A stretch of 64,000 bases of DNA from a virus, in IMG/VR virus record IMGVR_UViG_3300021338_000004, positions 13,176 through 77,175 of that record, one strand, 5' to 3'. The notes under the pieces were generated by a model. That model was given only the letters and a program-made list of their open reading frames with translations, was not told where the DNA came from and ran no database searches. Of the stretch, positions 3,001-23,454 are shown in pieces (position 1 is the first letter of the stretch; every line of letters starts with the position of its first letter). The position numbers and the translations under genes were made by a program.

Positions 3001-5127
3001 GCCAGGGCGGACCTTATCCACCACACGGCGTACAAAGTAGCGCTCAATCAGCTTCTCTTTCTTGTACAGCGGATCGTCATGGGCGGATGCGCCGCGGGCA
3101 TCGCCAAACGGCACGTTGCCGATAATGGCGTCAAAGGTGTCGTCTTGCGCATCGACCGCCAGCTTCTCAAAGCTCTGGTTAAGGATCTGATCTTCTGGAT
3201 GAAGAATGCGGTTCACGCCTGCGGACAGAGGATCGATCTCCGTGCCGGTGATGCGTACGCCGTCATTTTTGGTGGCACTGAACACGCCGGATCCGGTGGC
3301 CGGCTCCAGGACATTGCCGTTCTCAAAGCCGTTGGCTTTCAGCATATCCCACACACCTTCAGCAACGTGCGTTGGTGTGAAGTATTCATACTGGCTGTTA
3401 ACGGTTAAGCCGCCGCGACCGGAGTACTGAACCAGGGTTTTTCGATCTTCCAGTGTCAGTGAATCCGCATTCCAGTCGCTTGCTTTGATTCGCTCCACGA
3501 TGGCCGCTGCTTGCGCGTTCAGGTGTTCGCGAGTCTTTACGCCACTTGCCTTGAGGCCGAACTCTATCGCCTCGTCAGCGGCTTCTGAGTCGCCCTGTGC
3601 CTGCAACTCGATCCCTGTGAATTCCTGGAGCGCTTGATCAATCTTGGCTTTGCTGGCGGGCAACCGAATGCCAGTTAGCTTAGTAAAGCCTCGTTTTAAG
3701 TGGGTATTGACCCCTTTAGGGTGCGCCAGCAGTGTCTGCAGCACGGTAAAGTCCCGTGCGGTGACCGCATCCACCAGCTGTTTAACGAGGCCTGTAGGCT
3801 CATCGACTGGCACGCCCTGTGGATAAATAATCGATTCTGCTTCAGCAGTCAGCTTTTCGATATCGACCGGCGGCGCAACTGCCTCCAGGAATGCCGCCTC
3901 CAGTTCATCTACGCTGGTGGCCGCCATGATCTTCTGAATGGCAGGGCTTTCTTCGCCGGCACTGTCCAGAATGTCAGTGAGCTCAACATGCAGTTCCTGC
4001 ATGGCTTCCGGGCTAATGCCTGACAGAAAATGGGAAAACGCATGCTGGTCAATGGCCGTTTCATCGCTCGCACTATCCAGCAGGGATACTTTGCCCGCAC
4101 CGTCGCCATCCAGATAAAACTCTACTTTGTCATCGCCTTGCTTGGATACCACGACATTGGTGCCCGCACCGTCATGCGTGTACTTGGATATTGTTTCCAG
4201 CATTTTGCGCAGCGCGTTATAACCGTCATGGTCATGCGTAGCCACTTTCAGCACCAGGTCGCGTACTTTTCCGGCACCATCCATCACGAACTGCAACGGG
4301 ATTTCTACCTTGTGCTCTTTCGCGCGATGTTTGTTGCCGAACAGCAGGTAACGAAAGTCTTCGACCTTCATCGTGCTGATGGGCCCAAGGAAACGATCGT
4401 CGTCATAATGCGCCAGATAGGCGTCACGCGCGGCCTGCTGGTTAGGGAAGCCGATGAACACCTTGTCTTCGTCAAAGTAGGCAGAGCATGCACAATGGTG
4501 TGGATGCTCATGGCAGTCAGGACAGGTGTCGTCTTTCCACGCTTTTACCTTCTCAATCGCATGCTGTTTGACGATGTACACATGCTTTGCACTGCGATCG
4601 GGGCCGATGTAGCAATCCACACCCTCGCCATCTTCGCCGATGGTGCCGCGGATATAGCCGTAATCGTTACGCATGGTAATAGACCAAGCATGACCGTCTG
4701 GGTCTTTGCCTTCACGCTTGGAGCCGGCCTTATTTTCGATGGATATCGGCATGCCCTGGAATTGATATCGATCCTGCAGACGGAAGTCTGTTTTTTTCTT
4801 CAGGTGAAGGTCGTTCATGGCGCTGTCTAGCAGCGGCTGATTGTTCAGGTCTTCCGGGTATTCCTGATGCTCGCCTTCCAGGATCTCTACGTCAAAGTCA
4901 GCGGATTTTTTGAGTGTGTAGTGAAGCGACATTGGCTCCATGTCTGGGTGTCGCGCGATGCGCCCCAGTGGGCTCATGCCGTTGCGGGTTAACTCATCTT
5001 CCAGGAAGGTCTTGGATAACTCATCACCGTCCAAATGGACCGTACCACGACGGTCCCATGGTGCATCAATGGTGGCCGTCACAAATCCACCACCGTCATT
5101 AGTGGAGACTTTGAACTTATATGTCAT
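1..5127 (-). CDS. darB: DarB-like polyvalent antirestriction protein (N-terminal extension, InPase-like domain, N6-adenine MTase, SNF2/SF2 helicase); 3' end lies outside the window, >=1709 aa
   Basis: Absent from the ORF track because it has no stop in the window. I translated about 5127-3100 by hand without a stop and found the helicase motifs and window end in the same frame. Start ATG 5127 with AAGGA RBS. Motifs: GMPISIENKAGS...DYGYIRGTIGEDGEGVDCYIGP (InPase-like); VLEPATGSG and GNVPFG (MTase); LADDVGLGKT, VIVDEAH and LLTATP (SNF2). Confidence 0.9.
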   Translation of the reverse strand, partial: MTYKFKVSTNDGGGFVTATIDAPWDRRGTVHLDGDELSKTFLEDELTRNGMSPLGRIARHPDMEPMSLHYTLKKSADFDVEILEGEHQEYPEDLNNQPLLDSAMNDLHLKKKTDFRLQDRYQFQGMPISIENKAGSKREGKDPDGHAWSITMRNDYGYIRGTIGEDGEGVDCYIGPDRSAKHVYIVKQHAIEKVKAWKDDTCPDCHEHPHHCACSAYFDEDKVFIGFPNQQAARDAYLAHYDDDRFLGPISTMKVEDFRYLLFGNKHRAKEHKVEIPLQFVMDGAGKVRDLVLKVATHDHDGYNALRKMLETISKYTHDGAGTNVVVSKQGDDKVEFYLDGDGAGKVSLLDSASDETAIDQHAFSHFLSGISPEAMQELHVELTDILDSAGEESPAIQKIMAATSVDELEAAFLEAVAPPVDIEKLTAEAESIIYPQGVPVDEPTGLVKQLVDAVTARDFTVLQTLLAHPKGVNTHLKRGFTKLTGIRLPASKAKIDQALQEFTGIELQAQGDSEAADEAIEFGLKASGVKTREHLNAQAAAIVERIKASDWNADSLTLEDRKTLVQYSGRGGLTVNSQYEYFTPTHVAEGVWDMLKANGFENGNVLEPATGSGVFSATKNDGVRITGTEIDPLSAGVNRILHPEDQILNQSFEKLAVDAQDDTFDAIIGNVPFGDARGASAHDDPLYKKEKLIERYFVRRVVDKVRPGGLIALVVPINIVSGRGAKWERWRTQLSKVAEFLGAHKLPSKTFGRQGTDVVTDVIILRKHSRDAIARIQDMSIDTLKAANVVWDTFIQGEWFKSPEGRPFIQGTFVPKDPNKFRDQDRVINNEITEAGLKQALARKFDSRIDWALLDTAEPVIRYYAEGDRRYMNDREYIMSGGDWQEVDHGLDNPTGIDVKTYGADSIEQLKGLLSHNQSTLNLTYQQAKAASDSWPDLFTDQQKAAIALAAEQAPSAQEQVFRGALIGTLINRYQNQERTGDADTGDLVALQELVAAEYNRYGDPKKNRHLQLEGDSARYLGVFRNSIDQDGNFSALLSGESASDQQQYDDTLLQSIIEHLYIREGIDEITLEDVQALYRGPRALKSLGDLAEEPGVAITADGRMMPMNRFCSGEVFPKAAALAKAMSQESDPRLKAKWQAQIDEISAKVNSTSLEDISFGLNQKWFDRKYILEFFEQKGYRHLRYGVEKDVQREDPDTGEKYWEKELTNDTSSPFGEFYGYMDETGFLKQMNRYLNGNAITSSKAEYIQEYKDRVKALEEEFTIFMQQHQDAEQLQAQYNQKFNGYIPMSYEENSLELKGVPDTIKPHGYQNAGIRRMSEEGRGILADDVGLGKTFSAIALATYNKQMGRANRTATVVPNNVLGNWYHEHNTFLGTMEDVLFIGFSPKAGKDGNVERELVLDEEGNPKKNKFTGELMYQDVLVEDDAQTIYDKMHQIPHTSKSKIVMSQERFGMIPMRARTKEKYADKWVERDLISQRDAVEAIAGEKVDMGKGGDRLSYNEAKRTDKVRQAYSDEGTNKKGEYPYFEDMNFQSVIVDEAHHFKNSYEAGKESQRIAYLPTPVSSQRARDMAMKMAHLRDQNAGRGPVLLTATPITNSPLEIYNMLSLLIPVEEFERYGVYTADDFVRVFGKVETVTRQKVSGELVDSDGLVGFQNLDGLRNLFHRYTLLRNADDVGLELPDAPESNEFVDMSDEQEELYEQLRELA

Positions 5128-13000: not shown

Positions 13001-13264
13001 CTATGGTGCGTTCTCATCATCTGGGCCGCATAGCGAGCTATCGGCACAGTAATAATGCCCGTCATCGCCTATGTAATACTGTGCGCCTTGCTTGTATAAG
13101 CTCGCACCACACTCTCCGCACTGCTTTTTGTTGCAGCGATCACACAGGTGCACGCTCTGCCCTCGATCGTCACAAGTGCTCCAAATATTTGCCGGTGCCT
13201 CTTCAGTGCCGCGAATCATGCAGCCGCAGCCGTCGCAGATTGCGTTGTCATCATTGTCGTACAT
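13001..13264 (-). CDS. Small Cys-rich zinc-finger-like protein
   Basis: 87 aa with CDGC, CDRC, CGEC and YYC motifs; GGAG RBS. Confidence 0.6.
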   Translation of the reverse strand: MYDNDDNAICDGCGCMIRGTEEAPANIWSTCDDRGQSVHLCDRCNKKQCGECGASLYKQGAQYYIGDDGHYYCADSSLCGPDDENAP

Positions 13265-16857: not shown

Positions 16858-17208
16858 CTACGCCGCCAACCGGTAGTTGTCGTTACGGTATGTGCCGTAG
16901 TTATGGTGCAAAACGATCTTCCAGCGATCGAACTCAACGACCTCGATGCGTATGCTATAAATCTGCACCCCTACGACATCCTGGGTTAGTTTTTCTACGA
17001 TCGACATTTCGAGCATCACGGCCACATCTTCACTGTTATCAGGCTCGAATCGAAATGCGCCCAGGTTGTGCCCCCATGCAGGATAATCAGCAATAGACCC
17101 TTGAGGCGTATCAAACCACTCAGTGATGTTGTTGTTTTGGGCAGCGCCGTCGATATGGCTTTGAACACCACCCGCGGAAAGGGTGATCAGGTAATCAAGT
17201 TCCTTCAT
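16858..17208 (-). CDS. pmgA: Baseplate protein PmgA (gp25/GPW-like)
   Basis: EWFDTPQGSIADYPAWGHNL; lies between the tape measure gene and bplA. Confidence 0.75.
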   Translation of the reverse strand: MKELDYLITLSAGGVQSHIDGAAQNNNITEWFDTPQGSIADYPAWGHNLGAFRFEPDNSEDVAVMLEMSIVEKLTQDVVGVQIYSIRIEVVEFDRWKIVLHHNYGTYRNDNYRLAA

Positions 17209-19316
17209 TAGCGTACATCCCGACTCATGAGCTCCAGGTTCATATCACTGAAGTGCATAGATGGAGAGCTGGCTCCGGTATTTTGTGGCGTGGGTGCAGC
17301 CGCTCGCGGTGCGGCCCTATAGTGACGGACACCGCCACCAGATCCCGCCGTTTGAACGATCAGGGGCGACCGCCTCAATTCGGCGGCTATGGCTACGCCA
17401 ATCTTTTTGGCATCAATCGGTTCCTGCTTGGCAACCACGACCCGCTCGATTGAATGGGATTCAATGCTTTCGGTATTAGGCATGAGATCGGGCAAGACAT
17501 TAATAGATGCTTCGCCGCTGGCAGCTGCTGCAGCACCGGTCGCAGATTGCATGGTGTATGTTTTCCCTGGCGCAATCGTGGCGCGCCTGGCTGCTTTCTT
17601 TCGCTCATCGGCCAGTGCATGCACCTCTGCCACCTCGCGGCGATCTGCTTTTTCCTGATAGCGTTCGGCATCTGATTTTGGTGATACGGCGGGATCTGGT
17701 GGCGCTGAAGTCTGTTTTTCATCAGATCCTAACCAGCCGCTGAGTGCTTCACCCAGGGTCTCTCCCAGCTTCTCCCCACCGAAGGCACCAAGGGCACCAC
17801 CAATGATTGTCCCTATGACTGGCATAACAGCGGTGCCGACTGCCGCCCCAGCTAGTGCACCCCCCAGTGCGCCGCCGCCCGTGCTGGCTACCTGTGCGGC
17901 CTTCTGTGTGCCGCTGAGGCTGTCATCATCCTTGACCTCCATAAACTTGCTCGCCCCGGCCACAATTGCCGTGAGCGGCGCAGCAGCACGCGCCAACGCG
18001 CCTTTGGCGACAGCACCGATACTGCTTTTCCCTGCTCCGCTTGCGGTAGCCGCGGCAGTTGTCGTTGCTGCAACCTTGCCTGCAGGTTTTACTGCATCGA
18101 CTACACCGGCCTTTCGTCGGAATAAATCACGCAGTCGACGGCGCTTCCCGCGGCGGCGCTCCGGGACATCTACATCCCCACCATCAGCACCACCCAGCAG
18201 ATCTCCCAGGCCGGCACCTCCTGCTAACGTGTCCAGAAGGCCTTTCTGCTCCGGCTTGTAGCCGTTGTCCTCTATCGCGTCGATGACTTCTTTATGCTGA
18301 GTGGAACGGACTTCTACCTGATCTTCCTGGAGATCAGCTGTCCGCTGGTGGGTTTCCAGTATCTCCGTCTGGATATGACCGGTCTGCTTCTCATCGTTTC
18401 CGGGCGATGAAAAGAGCCGCTTTAGACGCCCGAACAGGCCGCCCTTGCCGTTTTTCTCTCGCGCCCGCTGTGCACGCTCCTCTTTACTGAGAAAACGCCC
18501 GGTTTCTGGATCCCGCGTTGCGTCAGTAACCGGCTGCGCATCGTCATCCGCGTTACCAAAAACAAGATGGCCAAGCTTAGAATCGGCCACCTCTTCGCCG
18601 GCTTCTTTGATCTCTTTTACGGCCTCCCAGATGCCGCCACCCACAACAGCGGATCCGGCAGCGTCAGAGGCATCAGCGCCCGCCAAATCGTCCGCCTTAT
18701 CCCGTTCAGTGAAGCCCTTGATGCCTTCAAACACACCCGACAACTTGCCTAAAAAGCCTCTCTGCTCTTCTTTTTGGCGGCGATCGGCTAACGCCTCTTC
18801 AGACTGTGAGCGACCTTCAGTGCTGGGAATGGGATCAGCCGAAGGAGCTGGTGATGCAGGAACGGACTGGGCAGCTGGATCCGCTTGCGTGGATTGATCG
18901 TCTACCTTTTTAGGCCTGGCTACCTGGCTGCCGACCTCTTCTGCCGGCTTGCCGGCTTCAGTAAGGGGGCGGGATGCCTGCCCTGAAAGGGGTTTCCTAT
19001 GGCTGCGAGCATCACTTACCGCCTCATTTGGTGGGACAACATGGACAGCATCACGTACAGATACACTGACATCTACTGCAACGGGATCCGGGCTGGTGCG
19101 CTCAGATATCGACGGCTGCTTTACTGCCGGCTGTGCGCCTGCCTCTCCCTTACCCCACCAACGATGACCCACCAGATCCGGCAGTACCGACGTGTTTTTG
19201 TCGATCTGCTCCAGGAGCTCAAGCGCCTGATCAGATTCTGTTGTACCGGTTAGCTCCTGGTTGGCGCTCTGCATGGGCGACCAGTCATCAATGGTGACCT
19301 GTCGTTCGTCAGTCAT
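17208..19316 (-). CDS. Tail tape measure protein (in the position of P1 sit)
   Basis: 702 aa, Ala/Gly-rich with glycine-zipper GGALGGALAGAAVG; downstream of the chaperone gene. Confidence 0.75.
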   Translation of the reverse strand: MTDERQVTIDDWSPMQSANQELTGTTESDQALELLEQIDKNTSVLPDLVGHRWWGKGEAGAQPAVKQPSISERTSPDPVAVDVSVSVRDAVHVVPPNEAVSDARSHRKPLSGQASRPLTEAGKPAEEVGSQVARPKKVDDQSTQADPAAQSVPASPAPSADPIPSTEGRSQSEEALADRRQKEEQRGFLGKLSGVFEGIKGFTERDKADDLAGADASDAAGSAVVGGGIWEAVKEIKEAGEEVADSKLGHLVFGNADDDAQPVTDATRDPETGRFLSKEERAQRAREKNGKGGLFGRLKRLFSSPGNDEKQTGHIQTEILETHQRTADLQEDQVEVRSTQHKEVIDAIEDNGYKPEQKGLLDTLAGGAGLGDLLGGADGGDVDVPERRRGKRRRLRDLFRRKAGVVDAVKPAGKVAATTTAAATASGAGKSSIGAVAKGALARAAAPLTAIVAGASKFMEVKDDDSLSGTQKAAQVASTGGGALGGALAGAAVGTAVMPVIGTIIGGALGAFGGEKLGETLGEALSGWLGSDEKQTSAPPDPAVSPKSDAERYQEKADRREVAEVHALADERKKAARRATIAPGKTYTMQSATGAAAAASGEASINVLPDLMPNTESIESHSIERVVVAKQEPIDAKKIGVAIAAELRRSPLIVQTAGSGGGVRHYRAAPRAAAPTPQNTGASSPSMHFSDMNLELMSRDVR

Positions 19317-19328
19317 AGGCTACCTGCA

Positions 19329-19499
19329 TTACTTGGTTTTCTTTGAAAGCGCCCGATTGAGGCTAAGAACGTAGCTGCGCGGGCTGGATAGCACGCTGTC
19401 CAGCGGCTGCCGTCCACGCTCTGTCAGACATAGGTTGCTGATTACGATATCCCAATCGCGCTTACTAAATCCGCGGAATAAACTCGACACACCGAAAGG
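19329..19499 (-). CDS. Putative +1 frameshift extension of the tail assembly chaperone (GT-like C-terminus)
   Basis: Overlapping +1-frame ORF ending 12 nt before the tape measure ATG. Confidence 0.55.
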   Translation of the reverse strand, partial: PFGVSSLFRGFSKRDWDIVISNLCLTERGRQPLDSVLSSPRSYVLSLNRALSKKTK

Positions 19500-20247
19500 G
19501 AAGGTGCAGCCGTGTTGACGCATCCCCCTTCCCGCTAGGGCAGATATGTGGCGGGCTTTTCAGGGAAAACTTGCCATTATTCAGAGCCAGCGGGACACCA
19601 TGCATCATCTCTGACTCACAGCTATCAACCAGCGCTTTAAGTTTTTTAAACTGGCTCTCCGGCATGCCCATAACCCACTCGGTGCGATCGCTTTCTTCAC
19701 GCTTGGCATCCGCTGCTTGGGCGTTGGGCAATATCAGGCGAAAGATCACCTCATGTACCCGTATTTTGGCATTCTCCGCGCGATACTCGGGGCTATCCTC
19801 TGCATACTCATCACGTTTAAGCCTCATGAGCTGCAGTGCTTCGGCATCTTCCCCGTTCAAACAGTGGATCTGGATCGTTTTGCCGTTAAATTCCCGTTCG
19901 CGGTACGACGCGCCTTGAATTGACCGGTATTCGGCTGCGATATCACGCATATCAAATGTGTGGTGATGCTCTTTTTGGCAGTGAGGACACTGATACGGCA
20001 CGCTGGCATACGTATCGGCCTGTGTATGCATGGCATACCAAAATACTGCCGTATAGCGATCCGCGACCGTCCAAGTTGATGCATCAGAGTAGTACTCTGG
20101 TAACTGAATCGTGTTGAGAAAGGCCGTAATTAGCGTTTCTTCATGCTCTGGCATCACTTCGCTAAAGCCGATGCATTGCGCGACACTGACCTCCTGCAGG
20201 TGGAGTTTTTTGTCGGGCTGGCTGGGTTGCTGAAGAACCGGAATCAT
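19465..20247 (-). CDS. pmgB: PmgB-like tail assembly chaperone / baseplate hub assembly protein
   Basis: Likely ATG 20247 (MIPVLQQPSQP) with ATGA overlap; WTVADR and CPHC motifs; upstream of the tape measure gene. Confidence 0.7.
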   Translation of the reverse strand: MIPVLQQPSQPDKKLHLQEVSVAQCIGFSEVMPEHEETLITAFLNTIQLPEYYSDASTWTVADRYTAVFWYAMHTQADTYASVPYQCPHCQKEHHHTFDMRDIAAEYRSIQGASYREREFNGKTIQIHCLNGEDAEALQLMRLKRDEYAEDSPEYRAENAKIRVHEVIFRLILPNAQAADAKREESDRTEWVMGMPESQFKKLKALVDSCESEMMHGVPLALNNGKFSLKSPPHICPSGKGDASTRLHLPFRCVEFIPRI

Positions 20248-20447
20248 GATGATGGCCACCCTTGACGGAAGGTGGCGACCGCCAGCACGAAAAAGGCAGC
20301 GCTCATGCATGTCATCGCGTCATCCACACTGCCTCCCAGGAGGCGCACAGTGGCCCATACAAGAAACAGCACAGCAACACATACAAATCCCCAGAAAAAG
20401 GATATAAGCCACCAGATAAACGTGCCTAAGCGCCTGAGCATTGGCAT
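20244..20447 (-). CDS. Small membrane protein (2 predicted TM segments)
   Basis: 67 aa, hydrophobic; stop overlaps the pmgB ATG. Confidence 0.55.
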   Translation of the reverse strand: MPMLRRLGTFIWWLISFFWGFVCVAVLFLVWATVRLLGGSVDDAMTCMSAAFFVLAVATFRQGWPSS

Positions 20448-20524: not shown

Positions 20525-21040
20525 TTAGGAACGGAATTGAATGAAGGTAACAGGGAATTCTAAGAACCCCTGCTCTGAACGACTTTCGCTGATATCGCCC
20601 ATTTGAGTGATGAAGACGCCCCATTCCCGGGGGGACTCCTCTCTGAAGCTGCCTTCGCTTGGCGCCAGTTCGCGCAGCTGGTGGCGCGACCATTTGCGCA
20701 CATAACCTTTTTCCGGGTGCAGTGGCGGATTAATGGTCCCGTCCGGGTTGATTACCTTACCTGCCCACGCGGATGCCCAGTTATAGATGCGCTGATCAGC
20801 GTGGTCCCGCATCGTCATGGAGATTGCAACCGGCTCTGCACTAACAGGGAACTGCAGCGCCTGGATCCCCGCTTTCAAGGCGTCGGTCGTGATTTCGATC
20901 GGCCCGTAGGACACGTCTTTCACGAACAGGTCAAAATCTGCGGGCTCTTCTTCGATTTCTATCCGGTATGCCCAGCTGCGCTGAAACTCAGTGTTAACAG
21001 CTTTTCGCATCGCCAGGCGCTGCAGATTAAAATCACCCAT
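20525..21040 (-). CDS. tub: Tail tube-like protein (P1 Tub)
   Basis: DLFVKDVSYG, GKVINPDGT and EFPVTF motifs; synteny. Confidence 0.7.
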   Translation of the reverse strand: MGDFNLQRLAMRKAVNTEFQRSWAYRIEIEEEPADFDLFVKDVSYGPIEITTDALKAGIQALQFPVSAEPVAISMTMRDHADQRIYNWASAWAGKVINPDGTINPPLHPEKGYVRKWSRHQLRELAPSEGSFREESPREWGVFITQMGDISESRSEQGFLEFPVTFIQFRS

Positions 21041-22773: not shown

Positions 22774-23454
22774 TTACATGCCCCGCTTCTTGCGCACACC
22801 CATGGATTTGGCGCGTTTGCGACGGGCGGATGCTGAATGAGCTTTTTTGCGGGCCTTTTTAAGTGCTGCTTTTTGTGCCGCTGAAAGCTTTGGCTTGCGC
22901 AGCGTTTTACGCACCAGTGTTACCACACCGTTGCGCACGACACGGATTTTGGCGCCATCCAGAATGGCGGATGCTTTCAGCGCAAAACGGGAAATAATCT
23001 CGTCATCGGCGCGCTCGCTGTCTTCGATACGTTTGCTCAGATAATTTGCCAGCTTTTCGCCTGCTTCTGAGTCTTCGTCATCGATAAACTGCTTCACATT
23101 CGCCTTATTGCCGCCCAGTTCCACCAATGCATCGGCAGTTGTGGCCAGAATGGCGTTATAGGCCTCTTCTTCTTCATCAGTGATCTCGCCATCACCATCC
23201 GCGTCAGCAAGGCCTGCCACCAGACCGTTCAGCATGTTCCAGGAATAATCGTCGCCACCGATAAACTCCAGCGCCGCGGCCATACCCAGTGCGCGCTCCT
23301 GTTTGCTGCCATAGTCGTCTTCGGCGCTATCAAACAACGCTTCATCCATGGTGATTTCATCAGCAGAGACGCTTTTGTTTCCGGCGTCAGGGAATGGATT
23401 GCTTGCGGCGCTATCCAGCACCAAAGAACCACCAGTACCAAAAATATCTGTCAC
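22774..23454 (-). CDS. P1 gp21-like prohead core protein (acidic N-terminus, very basic C-terminus)
   Basis: VVRNGVVTLVRK...SAAQKAALKKARKKAH...SMGVRKKRGM; adjacent to the sheath gene. Confidence 0.75.
   Translation of the reverse strand: MTDIFGTGGSLVLDSAASNPFPDAGNKSVSADEITMDEALFDSAEDDYGSKQERALGMAAALEFIGGDDYSWNMLNGLVAGLADADGDGEITDEEEEAYNAILATTADALVELGGNKANVKQFIDDEDSEAGEKLANYLSKRIEDSERADDEIISRFALKASAILDGAKIRVVRNGVVTLVRKTLRKPKLSAAQKAALKKARKKAHSASARRKRAKSMGVRKKRGM

Follow-up and report, generated by a model that had tools for sequence, protein, structure and literature searches.

The pmgB gene of P1-type phages, which have contractile tails, very probably codes for the tail assembly (tape-measure) chaperone and gives rise to two proteins, the longer of which would be produced by a +1 ribosomal frameshift close to the end of the gene. 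This was recognized in a 64,000-nucleotide (nt) stretch of DNA from a marine virus related to P1; the stretch, here called the window, comprises positions 13,176 to 77,175 of the IMG/VR record IMGVR_UViG_3300021338_000004. The end of pmgB overlaps a second open reading frame (ORF) in the +1 frame, and this dual-frame anatomy was found at every pmgB locus identified. The codons at the site of the presumed shift are conserved, and the second ORF is devoid of a conserved start codon of its own. Slippage of the tRNA in the ribosomal P site, occurring with low efficiency, would account for the change of frame, and the C-terminal extension added in this way may have a role in tail assembly.

The features of the locus are the following.

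19465..20250, minus strand: pmgB-like gene in the 0 frame, 261 amino acids (aa) plus TAG; short product, ending in ...LPFRCVEFIPRI.
19492..19500, minus strand: proposed +1 shift site CCC_UUU_CGG, placed by the conservation of the TTT, CGG and CCC codons and by the bracketing stop codons.
19329..19496, minus strand: +1-frame extension, Phe plus 54 aa and then TAA; C-terminal domain of the predicted 306-aa PmgB*.
19521..19533, minus strand: lineage-specific ATG (19523-19521) of the 64-aa ORF, with GGGAAGGGGG directly before the ATG.
17208..19316, minus strand: tape-measure protein gene, 702 aa, with hits to the PHROG tape-measure and tail-lysin families and a glycine-zipper hit.
20525..21040, minus strand: tail tube gene (Tub-like; phrog_1842, E 2.7e-40), upstream of pmgB.

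The tube gene, pmgB, the +1 ORF and the tape-measure gene are thus all encoded on the minus strand, and the order tube, pmgB, tape measure matches the one present in P1 (pmgC-tub-pmgB-sit). The full pmgB ORF at 19465-20310 codes for 281 aa. The homologues and the PHROG profile begin at Met21 of this ORF, and the ATG at 20250 is therefore the probable true start. At the 3' end, the 0 frame reads CTG CAC CTT CCC TTT CGG TGT GTC GAG TTT ATT CCG CGG ATT TAG, with the stop codon at 19467-19465, 10 codons past the shift site. The 261-aa protein ending in ...PFRCVEFIPRI would be the major product. A preliminary description of this DNA had placed a CCC_TTT_CGG motif at 19492-19500 near the end of pmgB, followed by a +1-frame ORF of about 55 codons which stops 12 nt before the tape-measure ATG. 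Reading of the minus strand confirmed both statements, since a +1 shift at TTT gives F-GVSSLFRGFSKRDWDIVISNLCLTERGRQPLDSVLSSPRSYVLSLNRALSKKTK-TAA, with 54 codons beyond the Phe, and the stop codon TAA at 19331-19329 is separated by 12 nt from the ATG at 19316. The trans-frame peptide that had been predicted across the junction, LHLPFGVSSLFR, is the correct translation of the shifted message. The ORF at 19329-19523 (64 aa) lies in the +1 frame relative to pmgB, as (20310-19523) mod 3 = 1, and the frame is open for 76 codons from stop to stop. By our own estimate, an open frame of 76 codons occurs by chance in about 3% of cases at the base composition of the window and is by itself only mildly unusual; it is the conservation across relatives, not the length of the ORF alone, which argues that the +1 frame is far beyond chance. 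The 64-aa ORF itself gave no match in Pfam or PHROG, and tblastn was likewise empty.

The assignment of PmgB was based on its match to phrog_1854 (PmgB-like; E 1.4e-63), where residues 21-281 align with profile positions 1-267 of 276. In a library of 1.84 billion proteins, 128 PmgB homologues were identified, 37 of them at E<1e-30, and the window protein shares 27-40% identity with PmgB of P1 (~27%), D6, Cronobacter phage JK004 and Vibrio plasmid-prophages. PmgB has no Pfam match and no detectable sequence similarity to known chaperone families. For P1, PmgB was shown to be essential, since its deletion leads to the absence of complete tails; the protein was not detected in the virion proteome and was proposed to be a tape-measure chaperone, and a frameshift is not mentioned (PMC9024508). 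The essentiality of P1 pmgB has been seen by CRISPR interference as well. An AlphaFold2 model of PmgB from 78 homologues reached a predicted local distance difference test (pLDDT) score of 96. Among the fold matches that span a domain, the best were 2ob9, a tail assembly chaperone of HK97 (Foldseek probability 0.90, E 0.06; Z 6.3 at the top rank, root-mean-square deviation (rmsd) 5.7, 100/107 residues), and the Bacillus subtilis prophage protein YqbN, 3klu (Z 5.9, rmsd 3.8, 94 residues aligned), which we take to be an XkdN-type chaperone; both matches are weak, and structural Z values below 8 can occur by chance. A wide VIA-align structure search resulted mostly in helical-hairpin matches to PmgB residues 126-202. 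Among the homologues, a nearly invariant C-x-x-C-x-x-x-H and a distant Cys were identified (C87, C90, H94 and C236 in the alignment). This set looks like a metal-binding site in the aligned proteins, which to our knowledge is not a feature of tail chaperones.

In P1, D6 and JK004, the end of pmgB is likewise overlapped by a +1 ORF whose stop codon lies shortly before the tape-measure gene, and the peptide of this ORF is homologous to the one of the window, with the pattern W/Y-x-x-(L/I)-(V/I)-x-N-L-x-L...P...D. The same layout was identified in 16 plasmid-prophages from Vibrio, Photobacterium, Alteromonas, Spartinivicinus, Aeromonas, Serratia, Xenorhabdus, Citrobacter, Moritella, Pantoea, Enterobacter and E. 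coli. For a sampling without bias to the shift site, a degenerate DNA pattern was based on the N-terminal W-T-x-x-D-R...W...C-x-x-C-x-x-x-H, about 500 nt upstream. It matched 19 of the 20 known loci, once each, and retrieved 119 IMG/VR loci, of which all that were readable through the 3' end proved to be true pmgB genes. Locus searches with the window PmgB, P0003 or P0012 as query gave no relatives among viral or genome contigs, the clustering of homologous proteins returned only the own cluster of the window PmgB, and no match to the region was obtained at the DNA level in the phage collection. The full set consists of 129 pmgB loci from phages, plasmid-prophages and IMG/VR contigs, with 109 unique sequences that fall into 45 lineages below 80% protein identity. 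A +1 ORF is present in all 129 loci and extends 58-172 nt past the 0-frame stop where the sequence is complete.

Counted from the Phe, the extension comprises 53-68 residues, and 53-62 in all but one lineage. Its alignment is nearly gapless across 44 lineages and contains the motif FG(I/L/V)xTSFQ...W..(L/I)I.NL.LYGGQP...P...L...K.K. In 26 lineages with a short form of the gene, the 0-frame stop lies 30-33 nt after the site (33 only in the lineage L033), and the next ~45 codons are open in the +1 frame only. Downstream of the site, the differences per site between these 26 lineages are 0.55, 0.38 and 0.68 at the first, second and third +1 codon position. Within lineages, most changes in the extension are synonymous and affect third positions; the counts of synonymous and non-synonymous changes are 3/0 for the P1 group, 18/0 for a Vibrio group, and 7/2 and 11/4 for two others. 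Where the tape-measure start could be called (41 lineages), the +1 stop is located between -8 and +23 nt relative to it, with frequent ATGA or GTGA overlaps. No conservation is seen for the -1 frame, which closes 5-95 nt beyond the stop. By these measures of substitution, the +1 frame is under purifying selection as a coding sequence. For the extension alone, the AlphaFold2 model, of moderate confidence (pLDDT 65), consists of three short helices.

Existing annotations of this region differ between phages. In D6 (NC_050154.1, 4737-4960 of the locus), the annotated sit start (4831) is inside the +1 extension, which ends at 4937; this start is probably annotated too far upstream, as the similarity to P1 Sit begins ~40 codons later. 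The distal part of the extension has been annotated as a tiny gene both in JK004 (gene_9, 4875-4964 of the locus, 29 aa) and in an Aeromonas salmonicida plasmid (a coding sequence at 2339-2479 of the locus, 46 aa). Both of these tiny genes are in the pmgB +1 frame and end at the stop of the extension.

The position of the shift is bracketed by stop codons. In five lineages, TTT is preceded at a distance of only 5-8 nt by a +1-frame stop, and in most it is followed by the 0-frame stop after 30 nt, which confines the presumed shift to -5..+30 nt around TTT. In this 35-nt span, TTT with a pyrimidine as the next base (U_UUY) is the sole invariant feature and is present in 45 of the 45 lineages. 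The Phe codon at the site is always TTT, compared to 58% among the other Phe codons of the same genes (p ~3e-11), and the next codon is CGG in 37 of the 39 cases in which it codes for Arg, compared to a background of 16% (p ~3e-27); both p-values are calculated as if the 45 lineages were independent, although this is not strictly the case. In total, 39 of the 45 lineages have CGN as the A-site codon. The codons replacing CGG are CGC (2), CAC (2), CTC (D6 group), CAG, TGC and TGG, and U_UUY is kept in all of them. The preceding codon is CCC in 24 of the 45 lineages, which corresponds to 73% of the Pro codons at this position versus a background of 15%, and is otherwise CGA, CAA, CAG, GGC, TTA or ACC. 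This bias for CCC points to a signal rather than to a coding constraint, as the position lies upstream of the dual-coded part. A further, conserved Pro codon of the 0 frame, which follows the site and precedes the stop, is CCA in 30 of 41 cases (24% background) and never CCT, a preference which fits a +1 frame (Gln, His or Arg there) that is already read at this point.

The preliminary description had suggested an analysis of the motif at the codon level in pmgB homologues, and had named synonymous variation and an independent initiation of the small ORF as arguments against a frameshift. In the 45 lineages the motif is conserved to the degrees given above, and no synonymous variation occurs at TTT. 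Its proposal that both tRNAs re-pair after the slip holds for the Phe codon (UUU to UUC, with U_UUY invariant); re-pairing at CCC is not required, since this codon varies. The idea of a PA-X-like +1 recoding event at CCC_TTT_CGG in a P1-like phage is supported by the codon conservation, and the lineages that are devoid of a start codon, described below, exclude independent initiation as a conserved mechanism.

A model for the synthesis of the two proteins can be proposed on this basis. Most ribosomes would remain in the 0 frame and terminate 10 codons past the site, resulting in the 261-aa PmgB. A minority would pause while UUU in the P site is paired to tRNA-Phe and the A site, which displays the infrequent Arg codon CGG, is still unoccupied. 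This tRNA would then slip by +1 onto UUC, and GGU would be read next by a Gly-tRNA. Reading in the +1 frame would end 12 nt before the tape-measure gene and give the 306-aa PmgB* with a small helical C-terminal domain. By analogy to lambda gpG and gpGT, the part common to both proteins might bind the tape-measure protein, while the extension might link PmgB* to another tail component, for example the tube, and tail assembly might depend on a fixed low ratio of the long to the short form. CGG is only moderately infrequent, and TTT_CGG also occurs in frame in other genes. A low basal level of shifting is probably inherent in the motif and is here put to use.

Stimulatory elements were searched for around the site. 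A Shine-Dalgarno-like sequence within 22 nt upstream was found in only one of 44 lineages and is not conserved, RNAalifold gave no consensus structure downstream of the site, and the following 60 nt show no unusual folding stability (mean z -0.68; +1.25 for the window). No tRNA gene was found in the window or in the remaining 13 kb of the 77-kb record, and a phage-encoded tRNA reading four bases is excluded here for this reason. In bacteria, UUU_Ynn has been described as especially prone to +1 shifting, as at the YopN-TyeA site (PMC5009743). UCC_UUU_CGU of influenza PA-X and UCC_UUU_CGG of human PLEKHM2 were experimentally shown to be +1 sites which do not need a downstream structure. It seems somewhat more probable than otherwise that YCC_UUU_CGG represents a minimal, structure-independent +1 cassette for bacterial and eukaryotic ribosomes, which has long been used by P1-type phages to set the ratio of two forms of the tape-measure chaperone.

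Other explanations for the +1 ORF have been considered. The same +1 event with the same protein (..PF-G..) would result if a Gly-tRNA were to bind GGN out of frame at a hungry CGG codon, or if CGGN were read as a four-base glycine codon. CGG together with the next base indeed gives GGN, coding for Gly, in 37 of the 45 lineages. However, the invariant element is U_UUY and not CGG, and eight lineages contain CGC, CUC, CAC, CAG, UGC or UGG, so that the +1 residue is Ala, Ser, Thr or Gly. The strict use of TTT, never TTC, is explained by slippage in the P site and not by quadruplet reading, and the 77-kb record is devoid of tRNA genes; reading in the A site is therefore regarded as improbable. A separate small gene of 64 aa, which would be expressed from the ATG at 19523 or through re-initiation following termination of pmgB and would not give a fusion protein, is considered very improbable. 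In its favor, the window ATG is preceded by GGGAAGGGGG, and some pipelines call the distal part as a tiny gene, like those mentioned above for JK004 and the Aeromonas plasmid. However, in 10 of the 45 lineages, ATG, GTG and TTG are all absent from the +1 frame over the stretch between its opening and a point 60 nt beyond the site, and the start codons of the others are at positions which are not conserved, mostly without a Shine-Dalgarno sequence. Because starts in other lineages are absent or at non-conserved positions, the ATG at 19523 is regarded as lineage-specific, and the G-rich stretch GGGAAGGGGG directly abuts it, which would be a poor spacing for a ribosome-binding site. In the five lineages with an upstream +1 stop, the ORF opens only 5-8 nt before TTT, and the conserved +1 peptide starts at the site itself (FGxxTSFQ), where synonymous 0-frame positions are constrained.

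That the +1 ORF is not translated, with its conservation being a by-product of constraints that act on the 0 frame, the DNA or the RNA, for example a signal for translation of the tape-measure gene, has very little probability. In the long forms of the P1 type, the 0 frame covers part of the region, and conservation there is ambiguous between the two frames. Against this stand the 26 short-form lineages, in which ~45 codons beyond the 0-frame stop are open only in the +1 frame, the protein-like conservation with the order of substitution position 2 < 1 < 3 and with synonymous polymorphism, and a length of the extension which is held at 53-68 residues including Phe. The least probable explanation, to which hardly any weight is given, is a frame change that arises by transcriptional slippage, by an error in sequencing or assembly or by a recent inactivating mutation. 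The P1-like contig L060 (IMGVR_UViG_2617271072_000004) reads the extension in frame, and the lineage L009 contains a T8 run beside the site. However, the natural fusion in L060 was rejected as spurious, since it consists of three single-base length changes relative to P1 in C3, T5 and A6 runs around pmgB-sit, which are typical of sequencing errors; this record probably carries homopolymer errors. The shift site itself has only C3 and T3 runs, which were judged too short for polymerase slippage. The two-frame layout occurs in 129 loci and 45 lineages, and independent seawater contigs are identical: the site is covered by contigs of other seawater runs (X5 and X8, neither of them marked as a potential source of the window) with zero differences and zero indels, and contigs from four seawater runs show no variants over the region. 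An assembly artefact at CCC_TTT_CGG is excluded because these independent contigs match base for base. Two variants of the frameshift were also tried and rejected. For a -2 shift, no re-pairing is possible at the conserved site, and for a shift at the 0-frame stop, neither the last sense codon nor the stop position is conserved, and the long forms of the P1 type stop past the conserved +1 motif.

Several points weigh against the assignment of pmgB as a chaperone gene with a +1 frameshift, in addition to the incomplete independence of the lineages. The argument for translation of the +1 frame is an evolutionary one. The window does carry a +1-frame ATG 26 nt upstream of the site. No stimulator was found, so that the efficiency of the shift may be very low. 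A slow codon in the A site is not universal, as CUC, CAC, CAG, UGC and UGG are present in D6-type and a few other sequences. In the phage of the window, CGG represents 13% of the Arg codons (8.5 per thousand) and is only moderately infrequent, and TTT_CGG occurs in frame four times in 46 long ORFs compared to 2.4 expected, which makes the motif neither rare nor avoided. For the protein, the modelled chaperone fold of PmgB, with weak matches at Z about 6, is suggestive only.

The closest parallel in gene arrangement is the G/GT pair of phage lambda. The frameshift in lambda G/GT is said to have been described by Levin in 1993, and its wider conservation in long-tailed phages reportedly by Xu, Hendrix and Duda in 2004. 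The lambda gpG protein has ~140 aa, and PmgB with ~260 aa is about twice as large. Frameshifting of the lambda gpG/gpGT type in tail assembly chaperones is conserved in long-tailed phages (reviewed in PMC5009743). Like lambda G, pmgB immediately precedes the tape-measure gene and follows the gene for the tube or major tail protein. In both cases, the slip site is a few codons before the 0-frame stop, with a short major and a longer minor product (in the case of pmgB predicted), and the second ORF is devoid of its own start codon and extends to the start of the tape-measure gene. PmgB of P1 is also essential for tails and absent from virions (PMC9024508). For the modelled PmgB of the window, the weak matches to the HK97 and XkdN-type chaperones may point in the same direction. 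In contrast to lambda, the proposed shift in pmgB is +1 and not -1, an XXXYYYZ heptamer is absent, and the predicted extension has only ~55 aa.

The site itself is more similar to those of PA-X and PLEKHM2, with UUU in the P site, C as the fourth base allowing re-pairing to UUC, CGN in the A site, YCC in front and no downstream structure, and CCC_UUU_CGG of the window is an exact fit to YCC_UUU_CG. PA-X and PLEKHM2 are translated by eukaryotic ribosomes, whereas pmgB is a phage morphogenesis gene in a bacterial host, in which the upstream codon varies. The YopN-TyeA fusion in Yersinia is also made by bacterial ribosomes at a U_UUY without an adjacent stop codon and joins two frames; its product was reported to be functional (PMC5009743), while the pmgB site differs in being conserved in dozens of divergent phage lineages with a preference for CGG. 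In Listeria phage PSA, a +1 frameshift in cps and tsh likewise results in structural or assembly proteins with a C-terminal extension. There, however, the shift takes place on a proline codon (CCC_UGA or CCC_UCC) adjacent to a stop codon or a pseudoknot, compared to the Phe codon UUU in front of a sense codon in pmgB. A +1 frameshift in a chaperone gene has been suspected for the haloarchaeal myovirus HSTV-2 (PMC5009743), which would be the same class of gene as pmgB, also in a myovirus. From the prfB (RF2) type, pmgB differs by the sense codon in its A site, by a 0-frame stop located 30 nt (up to 114 nt) downstream and by the near absence of a Shine-Dalgarno-like stimulator (1/44 lineages).

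The 77-kb phage record has direct terminal repeats, the G+C content of the window is 52%, and DNA of the phage is present in several seawater metagenome runs from 2018. Its closest PmgB relatives (~40% identity) are in plasmid-prophages of Vibrio, Photobacterium and Alteromonas, which suggests a marine gammaproteobacterial host. Some further observations concern the neighboring genes. The tube gene and pmgB are separated by 274 nt, and this gap is occupied by an ORF for a strongly hydrophobic protein of 67 aa (MPMLRRLGTFIWWLISFFWGFVCVAVLFLVW...; 20244-20447, minus strand), which may be the insertion of a gene for a small membrane protein. In P1, there is no gap between the tube gene and pmgB, and D6 carries an inserted replication gene at that place. 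The tape-measure protein is short (702 aa, versus 1140 aa for the P1 counterpart), its similarity to the PHROG tail-lysin family is weak, and unlike for the counterparts of P1, D6 and JK004, no Pfam transglycosylase (SLT) match was found in it at E <= 0.01. At 22774-23454 (minus strand), a 226-aa phrog_1053 protein of unknown function is encoded, with a sub-threshold match to the Pfam TIR domain (E 0.0028, 40 residues) that is probably noise.

A frameshift in pmgB is described neither in the searchable literature on phages nor in the annotations of P1, D6, JK004 and the plasmid-prophages. The P1 records list pmgB as one ORF and leave the interval up to sit without explanation. With its second frame, pmgB represents, as judged here, the lambda G/GT principle in a new family, in the +1 direction and with a PA-X-like motif. 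The cloned pmgB ORF was shown to complement a P1 pmgB deletion only weakly, by 4.7-fold (PMC9024508); it can be speculated that the frameshift explains this result. If the assignment is correct, one product of an essential gene is missing from the annotation of every P1-type phage and phage-plasmid, including hundreds of plasmid-prophages from clinical E. coli and Salmonella, and the rule that tail chaperones are made as two products by frameshifting would be extended to a family without sequence similarity to known chaperones. The gene would also provide a natural bacterial test bed for the +1 motif of the PA-X and PLEKHM2 type and a well-sampled +1 training case for tools that predict frameshifts. 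Should the interpretation of YCC_UUU_CGG as a cassette hold as well, pmgB would be the first widely conserved programmed +1 frameshift on a sense codon in a bacterial virus, and the seeming lack in P1 of the near-universal chaperone frameshift would be explained.

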